DNA from: Octopus vulgaris
Taxonomy: Eukaryota
Reading direction: 5' to 3'
Length of the DNA stretch: 64,000 bases
NCBI GenBank assembly: GCA_951406725.2
Contig: OX597822.1
Location: forward strand, 109,368,001-109,432,000
Part shown: piece after piece, positions 49,172-50,059 of the stretch
How the letters are laid out: each line of letters starts with the position of its first letter
Numbering within the stretch: the first letter of the stretch is position 1
Translations under genes and position numbers: made by a program
The notes under the pieces: generated by a model
The model's database searches: none
Told to the model about the DNA's origin: nothing
Seen by the model: the letters and a program-made list of their open reading frames with translations, nothing else

Positions 49172-50059
49172 AGTAATAATAAAAGGGTGAAATTAATTAA
49201 TTAGGGATAATTATCAATTACACCAAGTAGATTTCGGTATGTAAAAGCCCCATTCGAGGAAAATTTAAGTAATACTAAGTAATAAAGGGTTTAGCAACGA
49301 ATTGCCTCACCAACACACCGAATTTAGAAATAGCAGTCAAAGAGATATAGCTATTCCTTCTACTAAAAGGGGGATCTCAGTAAAAACACAGCACTTAAAA
49401 GGCAAACACAGACAGGTAAGAAAGAAAGAATGAAATGACGGCAATCCATCATGCAATTTTAAGTTACCTACGGACGTACGTTTCGAGATCAAGTTTTAGG
49501 ATATCATAAGAATTAGAAGATTCTACTTTACCCAGACTTCTTCTCTCATCGGCGCAGGATACTACAATTGTGAATAATTGTATGTTAAATTTTGAGATAC
49601 TAGAATGCGTCATCTCAACTCAGTGTCAGAGCGAGCCAAAGCATGACCAGTACCACGAAATTCAAAGTTTGAATGAAAGTTTGTGTCACCAGCCCCCTTC
49701 AGCCCGCGTGCAGCCAAGACAAAATGCTGTGGTCATTTACTGGGATAAAATATGGTTATCAGTAATAATAAACGGGTGAAATTAATTAATTAGGGATAAT
49801 TATCAATTACACCAAGTAGATTTCGGTATGTAAAAGCCCCATCCGAGGAAAATTTAAGTAATACTAAGTAATTAAGGGTTTAGCAACGAATTGCCTCACC
49901 AACACACCGAATTTAGAAATAGCAGTCAAAGAAATATAGCTATTCCTTCTACTAAAAGGGGGATCTCAGTAAAAACACAGCACTTAAAAGGCAAACACAG
50001 ACAGGTAAGAAAGAAAGAATGAAATGACGGCAATCCATCATGCAATTTTAAGTTACCTA
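49172..50059 (-). mobile_element. Retrozyme-like non-coding element: 299-bp direct repeats (49172-49470, 49761-50059), period 589 bp, in (TA)n
   Basis: Four mismatches counted between repeats; hammerhead spans the junction of the unique part and the repeat; (TA)n on both sides. Confidence 0.85.
49467..49558 (-). ncRNA. Type I hammerhead ribozyme, U4C variant, long stem II
   Basis: cctgcg-CCGATGA-gaga...(53 nt)...tctc-GAAA-cgtacg-TC-cgtagg; 6-bp stem I with one G.U, palindromic stem III ACGTACGT, GUC triplet. Confidence 0.8.

Follow-up and report, generated by a model that had tools for sequence, protein, structure and literature searches.

A new non-LTR retrozyme in the genome of Octopus vulgaris, and an excess of its copy ends at the predicted hammerhead cut

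Why should the outer 5′ end of an inserted repeat lie two nucleotides from the very site at which its own RNA is predicted to cut itself? The question is raised by an element on the minus strand of a 64,000-nt stretch of the Octopus vulgaris genome (contig OX597822.1, positions 109,368,001 to 109,432,000), which we call the window, and whose coordinates we use throughout. Read on the minus strand, the window presents a (TA)n run (50278-50058), a first copy of a repeat A (50059-49761), 290 unique bases (49760-49471), a second copy of A (49470-49172), and another (TA)n run (49172-49130). The two copies of A have 299 nt each, are 99% identical, and are spaced by 589. The original prediction, made from the sequence alone, had described this same layout, and the coordinates agree with it.

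If we number the unit from the first base 3′ of the predicted cut (window 49472, minus strand), with a unit length of 589 nt, the element consists of an upstream near-complete unit (positions 3-589; 49473-50059, minus strand) and a downstream partial unit (positions 1-301; 49172-49472, minus strand). Repeat comparison and end mapping place the end of the partial unit at a 3′ site, site B (297-312). The copy has a single arm with its 3′ end at position 301, and a simple reading of the sequence finds the unstranded (TA)n runs at its 3′ end (49130-49172) and 5′ end (50058-50278). The outer 5′ end is unit position 3, that is, 2 nt past the predicted cut just as had been claimed, with an ambiguity of two bases because the first TA of the copy can be assigned to the (TA)n run as well. 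The claim that there is no convincing open reading frame also holds: inside the element none exceeds 89 codons from stop to stop, and longer frames extend through the (TA)n.

Could such a direct repeat be a satellite-like or assembly duplication with no RNA step at all? The long (TA)n runs on both sides are hard to assemble, and an assembly duplication had been named from the start as a possible source of the repeat. However, four sites differ between the two A copies, each variant is absent from all other loci among the 61 described below, and the head-to-tail junction recurs genome-wide (1125 exact matches to a junction-spanning 21-mer), all of which contradicts an assembly duplication. The copies are also dispersed on many contigs, with fixed 3′ ends, variable 5′ ends, inverted arms, and a covarying ribozyme, and we regard this explanation as hardly credible. 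The four differences probably arose within the copy in the window, which carries four further private changes and lies about 0.9% from its relatives.

The predicted repetition in the genome is borne out. A search with the unit in 2.8 Gb of genome (227 contigs) gives 172 matches with up to 99-100% identity, for the best 40 of 2367 candidates scored, and an exact 27-mer from the unit also has 172 genome matches. The 589-nt unit (GC 37%) is a young multi-copy family, dispersed on many contigs. We analyzed 61 loci, taken among the best-scoring matches and the first 100 places listed for the 27-mer, a sample that is biased to long copies holding unit positions 8-34. Nearly all of them are bordered by TA-rich runs. 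Tandem arrays, another expectation of the original prediction, are found as well, with at least two junctions in one arm at 29 of the 61 loci, and up to 11 junctions. A sister family has a unit of 594-596 nt with about 84% identity (538 matches to a diagnostic 25-mer). Further out, a motif from a block conserved across the superfamily has 12,133 genome matches (a reversed control has 0), which include units of about 558, 565, and 584 nt. Related hammerhead elements with several core and stem variants, and with the same two 3′ sites, are seen at L182-L211 and L232-L251.

The proposed hammerhead (49467-49558, minus strand) is of type I. From 49558 to 49467, it has a 6-bp stem I (CCUGCG/CGUAGG), the core CCGAUGA, a 4-bp stem II (GAGA/UCUC) that closes a long insert, GAAA, a palindromic stem III (ACGUACGU), and GUC, and cleavage is predicted after GUC, between 49473 and 49472. 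An Rfam search of this region reports zero matches at the gathering score, and at E ≤ 10 it reports no hammerhead family, only chance-level matches to non-hammerhead families. Since Rfam is silent, our evidence for a hammerhead is the motif and its covariation.

The motif is present in every intact junction. Stems I and II differ between subfamilies by paired, compensating changes, stem III is always a palindrome or close to one, and the cores are CCGAUGA, CUGAAGA, CUGAUGA, and UUGAUAA. In an alignment of 11 subfamily sequences, in which stem II is misaligned for the short-insert members, 93% of the cells are paired and two-sided changes occur in 8 of the 14 pairs. Pairing falls to 22-44% in slid-alignment controls, and the covariation score is reached by 0 of 500 shuffles, a control that ignores relatedness. 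Motif and subfamily covariation thus bear out the type I hammerhead with its predicted cut after GUC. What had been missed is a change in the core, where position 4 is C in place of the canonical U found in the sister subfamilies (U4C). In a viroid hammerhead, the same change lowers in vitro cleavage and is tolerated (accessible text of PMC3088659).

Metazoan hammerhead motifs have been described as dimeric (PMC4209133, in the part available). Fold prediction for one copy gives a best fold of −22.9 kcal/mol vs. −19.0 kcal/mol for the active form. For two copies, the lowest-energy fold is the dimeric hammerhead (−52.6 vs. 2 × −22.9 kcal/mol). The hammerhead in the window is thus predicted to work as a dimer, and the dimer-type minimal hammerhead of the original prediction stands as a predicted fold. 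Among Xenopus retrozyme dimers, in vitro cleavage is described for 1 of 9 (available part of bioRxiv 10.64898/2026.07.22.740005).

How do the copies begin and end? The outer 3′ ends (n = 98) are concentrated in two classes, 48 at 190-215 and 37 at 290-320, that is, at fixed sites about 201 nt (site A) and about 300 nt (site B) past the cut. Head-to-head arms joined at their 5′ ends are present in 37 of the 61 loci, and when both 3′ ends of a two-arm locus fall in these classes, there is one of each in 23 of 24 loci (p = 1.5e-6). Penelope-like elements have a one-sided tail and two 3′ ends (PMC8557442, as far as available), and for the green anole Poseidon the one-sided tail has been traced to two internal reverse-transcription start sites (PMC11167929, likewise in part). 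By analogy, the two 3′ ends, one per arm, match the start sites and the one-sided tail of Penelope-like elements. The 5′ positions of the two arms lie within 30 nt of each other in 8 of 37 loci (p = 0.03), an enrichment too weak to establish either a fold-back or a common RNA end.

The two 3′ sites also account for the anatomy of the copy in the window. The superfamily-conserved block (49181-49376, minus strand) includes site A (unit 201, window 49272) and extends to site B, and it has a second copy within the upstream unit (49772-49965, minus strand). We infer that the block at 49181-49376 is an enzyme-binding and priming region. Rather than a defined terminal repeat, the 299-bp repeat is the part of the unit between the cut and site B. 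The direct repeat is a partial tandem, and it arises because copying has a fixed starting point inside the unit, about 300 nt past the cut. A 589-nt non-coding, (TA)n-associated unit with a Penelope-type insertion anatomy, as had been proposed, is what the family shows.

Which enzyme would do the copying? The window element has no reverse transcriptase (RT) or GIY-YIG frame, so that an autonomous Penelope-like element is rejected. The genome has a young Neptune-type element, with an RT and GIY-YIG frame of 781 codons, copies that are mostly 98-99% alike, a pseudo-LTR, inverted arms, TA flanks, and a 40-nt tail; its clade name rests on motif comparison. Hydra is represented too, by at least two young, TA-flanked families whose open RT and GIY-YIG frames have 717 and 727 codons; one of these families forms tandem arrays, and the Hydra protein resembles Hydra-1_Obim by eye. 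Neither the unit nor the block profile has any similarity to the ends of GIY-YIG elements in 70 loci examined (150 scored of 6136 candidates), and neither the unit nor the block is similar to Hydra elements in 50 loci examined, which came from the first 100 among 727 matches to a Hydra motif. In these samples, the Neptune-type element, the other GIY-YIG families, and the two young Hydra families have no detectable sequence in common with the unit or block. Twenty longer stretches around diverged block copies have no linked open reading frame, and where block copies lie beside Neptune- or Hydra-type elements, (TA)n separates the two in the 3 cases viewed.

Some features of these elements are worth recording in their own right. 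A young Neptune-type element (L165:744-5990) has a second, overlapping upstream frame of 479 codons with no convincing Pfam match, and close to the 3′ end of this element there may be a minimal hammerhead of the U3-A8 kind. One young Hydra family, present as tandem arrays of about 2585 nt, has a hammerhead-like motif with C at core position 4 (L341:1340-1445) and two 3′ ends about 67 nt apart. In the window itself, a decayed fragment (4609-5225, plus strand) has weak similarity (25-30%) to the C-terminal part of Hydra proteins.

The arrays speak to the template of the copying. Most copies read through one to eleven intact hammerhead junctions, and nearly all junctions are exact. Among 35 multi-unit loci, 16 have a rare variant, found in no more than two loci, that all copies covering the site share, in some cases on both inverted arms; in the other 19 no rare variant is shared in this way. 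Two sister loci, L069 and L075, have each their own fixed variants. Rare variants in all units of a locus require regrowth from one unit, and this was probably repeated copying of one unit with a circle as the template. Rolling-circle copying of a circular RNA has been proposed in print (accessible parts of PMC7229834 and PMC4209133), and it would account most simply for the regrowth.

Alternatively, there may be no circles, the templates being linear read-through transcripts, partly cut, and the arrays growing and homogenizing by unequal crossing over in the DNA. Ends at the cut are compatible with linear RNA, unprocessed RNA is the main in vitro substrate for the anole element (PMC11167929, available part), and local amplification has been proposed for Xenopus (bioRxiv 10.64898/2026.07.22.740005, also in part). 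At L061 and L063, variants recur at a three-unit period, which suggests either a multimeric (trimeric) template or a later block duplication; the latter would suit unequal crossing over, and because of this period a monomer circle alone is insufficient. On the other hand, variants fixed in all units and in both inverted arms of dispersed young arrays, such as L069 and L075, need a single-unit bottleneck followed by regrowth. We find copying from linear RNA alone unlikely. A mixed pool of circular and self-cut linear RNA would fit the arrays, the three-unit period, and the ends at the cut.

We now return to the 5′ ends. In the 61 loci, nine of the 84 5′ ends lie at unit positions 1-8, and per base at risk, the rate of 5′ ends is 0.76% at these positions vs. 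0.13% elsewhere (ratio 6.0, p = 4e-5). Genome-wide, for the family and its close sisters, we count 62 true ends at positions 1-8 in 1446 anchors vs. 11 in 1125 for a control interval at 578-585 (odds ratio 4.5, p = 2e-7; for raw matches 1.9, p = 0.005), in a test that has this one control interval, that counts the arms of one insertion separately, and in which 3 of the 62 ends belong to rearranged copies that could be scored in an alternative way. All the matches underlying these counts were inspected, 68 at positions 1-8 and 29 in the control, and 6 and 18 of them, respectively, were dropped as point changes or small indels in continuing copies. In the 61-locus sample, apparent ends at position 1 in L018, L091, and L094 were rejected (the actual ends are 569, 573, and 581), and so was L105 as a 5′ end, which is an internal change.

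From position 1 to position 8, the 62 ends number 9, 7, 10, 4, 5, 15, 1, and 11; at position 6, chance matches to TA flanks raise the count. They join an inverted arm (32), a TA run (15), or other DNA (15). The pile-up that the original prediction had called for is then real, a 4-6-fold excess, but the cut is not the source of most 5′ ends: about 95% of passages continue through the cut site, and the other 5′ ends are scattered. With background stops at about 1% per 8-nt interval, the cut accounts for about 4-6% of 5′ ends per passage. A second cluster of five 5′ ends lies at unit positions 46-51 (L002, L061, L062, and L070), three of them exactly at 46, in a pyrimidine-rich tract, so that hot spots other than the cut exist. 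Separately, many copies ending at the cut (L254, L275, L277, and L392-L394) have short repeated pieces of the first 10-30 nt, which look as if copying had restarted several times at the RNA end.

An end at the cut implies that a linear RNA was cut there or that the enzyme stalled at the junction. Could circles be the only template, with the ends at positions 1-8 being places where the enzyme stalls, at a ligation scar or at stem I? The ends are indeed spread over positions 1-8 with no pile-up at position 1, stem I spans positions 1-6, and the arrays are homogeneous, with junctions almost always exact. Yet nine ends are at exactly position 1, several of them without TA microhomology, and stem I has just 6 bp, while longer predicted helices in the unit have no comparable excess. 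A ligation scar itself would still imply cleavage in vivo. A stall on circles alone seems to us distinctly improbable. The excess of 5′ ends is an indirect sign that the RNA likely cuts itself in the living animal, a minority of the templates probably being cut linear RNAs.

For the single copy in the window, there is a simpler account to weigh, that the family is real but the coincidence of this 5′ end with the cut is due to chance, an ordinary truncation having joined the (TA)n via the TA at positions 3-4. The end is TA-ambiguous, and roughly one in five ends at positions 1-8 is background (about 1% vs. 4-6%). However, about four in five of these ends belong to the excess, and we consider a coincidence rather unlikely. 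It is moreover limited to the copy in the window, and compatible with the same model for the family. The copy in the window is likely one made from a cut linear RNA.

Taken together, this is a new animal non-LTR retrozyme that behaves as a non-autonomous Penelope-like element. We consider it probable that this protein-free 589-nt hammerhead repeat is copied into TA-rich DNA by a borrowed Penelope-like RT-endonuclease, starting from two fixed internal sites, and from a template pool of circular and self-cut linear RNA. Tandem copies would be transcribed; two hammerheads would then pair via the palindromic stem III, as the predicted fold has it, and cut inefficiently after GUC, as the copy ends lead us to infer. 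Part of the products would be ligated into circles. The enzyme would cut TA-rich DNA and prime cDNA about 201 and about 300 nt past the cut, one site per DNA end. Copying would mostly pass intact junctions and stop at scattered places, leaving arrays of near-identical units, while about 1 in 20 passages would run off a cut 5′ end. The copy in the window would result from priming at site B on a dimer or longer RNA that had kept one junction intact and been cut at its 5′ end, the second arm being absent.

Is the element transcribed, and what did its site look like before? Contigs of four presumed-RNA runs (from four studies; none of the runs is recorded as RNA) cover the unit, and three such runs have no flank coverage, which is a weak hint of transcription. 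Contigs of transcript-like runs show head-to-tail joints, which are also expected from genomic tandems. Data of two other organisms have matches to parts of the unit. In the large run X16, one contig passes straight from the left flank to sequence that corresponds to about 50300, with element and (TA)n both absent and about 3% divergence; it is probably an empty allele. The flanks at 49112-49129 and 50278-50300 resemble a degenerate 17-nt duplication. From this one contig and the flanks, it is a possibility that the insertion created or extended the (TA)n. For 5 of 62 loci, another copy of a repeat spans the two flanks; 3 of these loci are informative, and in each the empty site has a short TA-rich tract. 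Beside the insertion, there are two diverged copies of a common short repeat (50297-50465 and 50613-50780), which appears to resemble a SINE.

The class of element is already known. Metazoan non-LTR retrozymes have non-coding tandem units of low GC, each with one type I hammerhead with a short palindromic helix III, and Penelope-like mobilization has been proposed for them (PMC7229834 and bioRxiv 10.64898/2026.07.22.740005, in the parts at hand). The octopus family shares with them the non-coding tandem units, the single type I hammerhead, the palindromic helix III, the low GC, the range from monomers to multimers, and the lack of true LTRs. Its 589-nt unit is above the 150-450 bp given in the available part of PMC7229834, and within the 51-972 bp given in that of bioRxiv 10.64898/2026.07.22.740005. 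It differs in the long stem II insert, and in the U4C core, and no link to a named autonomous element was found among the loci compared.

With endonuclease-bearing Penelope-like elements, as described in the accessible text for the anole Poseidon (PMC11167929), for Neptune, Hydra, Naiad, and Hydra-1_Obim (PMC8557442), and for pseudo-LTR hammerheads (PMC4209133), the family shares partial tandems, 5′ truncation, inverted 5′ arms, two 3′ ends, a one-sided tail, (TA)n sites, and a hammerhead upstream of the start sites. Unlike them, it has no open reading frame, and its 3′ sites are about 100 nt apart vs. the 30-40 described there. For the anole Poseidon in vitro, the hammerhead is dispensable and, in the part of PMC11167929 available, no reads start at the cut, whereas the 5′ ends of the octopus family are enriched there. 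Non-autonomous elements of Chlamys such as MRC1 usually have a 3′ end like that of the autonomous partner, and mostly lack canonical hammerheads (PMC8557442, in part). The octopus family is like the MRC1 type in being non-autonomous, with head-to-tail multicopy insertions in microsatellites, but it has a predicted hammerhead, and no similarity to a partner among the loci compared. A precedent for the ends is R2, where the cut of an HDV-like ribozyme matches the 5′ junction of inserted copies (PMC3774820, available part). Both the ribozyme and the enzyme class are other ones, and while the R2 cut is the full-length end, the cut in the octopus family is a minority of ends.

What does the finding add? 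Whether Penelope-like and retrozyme hammerheads cut in vivo, and whether the template is cut, uncut, or circular, are posed as open questions in the accessible parts of PMC11167929, PMC8557442, PMC7229834, and bioRxiv 10.64898/2026.07.22.740005. The parts at hand of the latter two contain no analysis of copy ends with respect to the cut. A literature search that covered few subscription journals, and the retrozyme and anole papers without their supplements, returned no report of an excess of copy ends at the cut, nor of a cephalopod retrozyme. The addition here is a counted footprint of ends at the predicted cut. On genomic sequence alone, a 4-6-fold excess of ends together with a majority of read-through suggests that the ribozyme is active, if weak, and that the template pool is mixed. 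The end statistic offers a cheap test, needing only a genome, for other hammerhead families, and the core and stem variants of the superfamily are a natural series in which to compare activity. It is for us an even call whether the broader reading is right, in which the ends of genomic copies keep a record of germ-line hammerhead cleavage, and a Penelope-type enzyme primes one RNA from two fixed sites, one for each DNA end, on circles and self-cut linear RNA alike. If it is, the fraction of copies ending at the cut would be a readout of ribozyme activity in vivo, by which thousands of natural core variants could be compared within a single genome.
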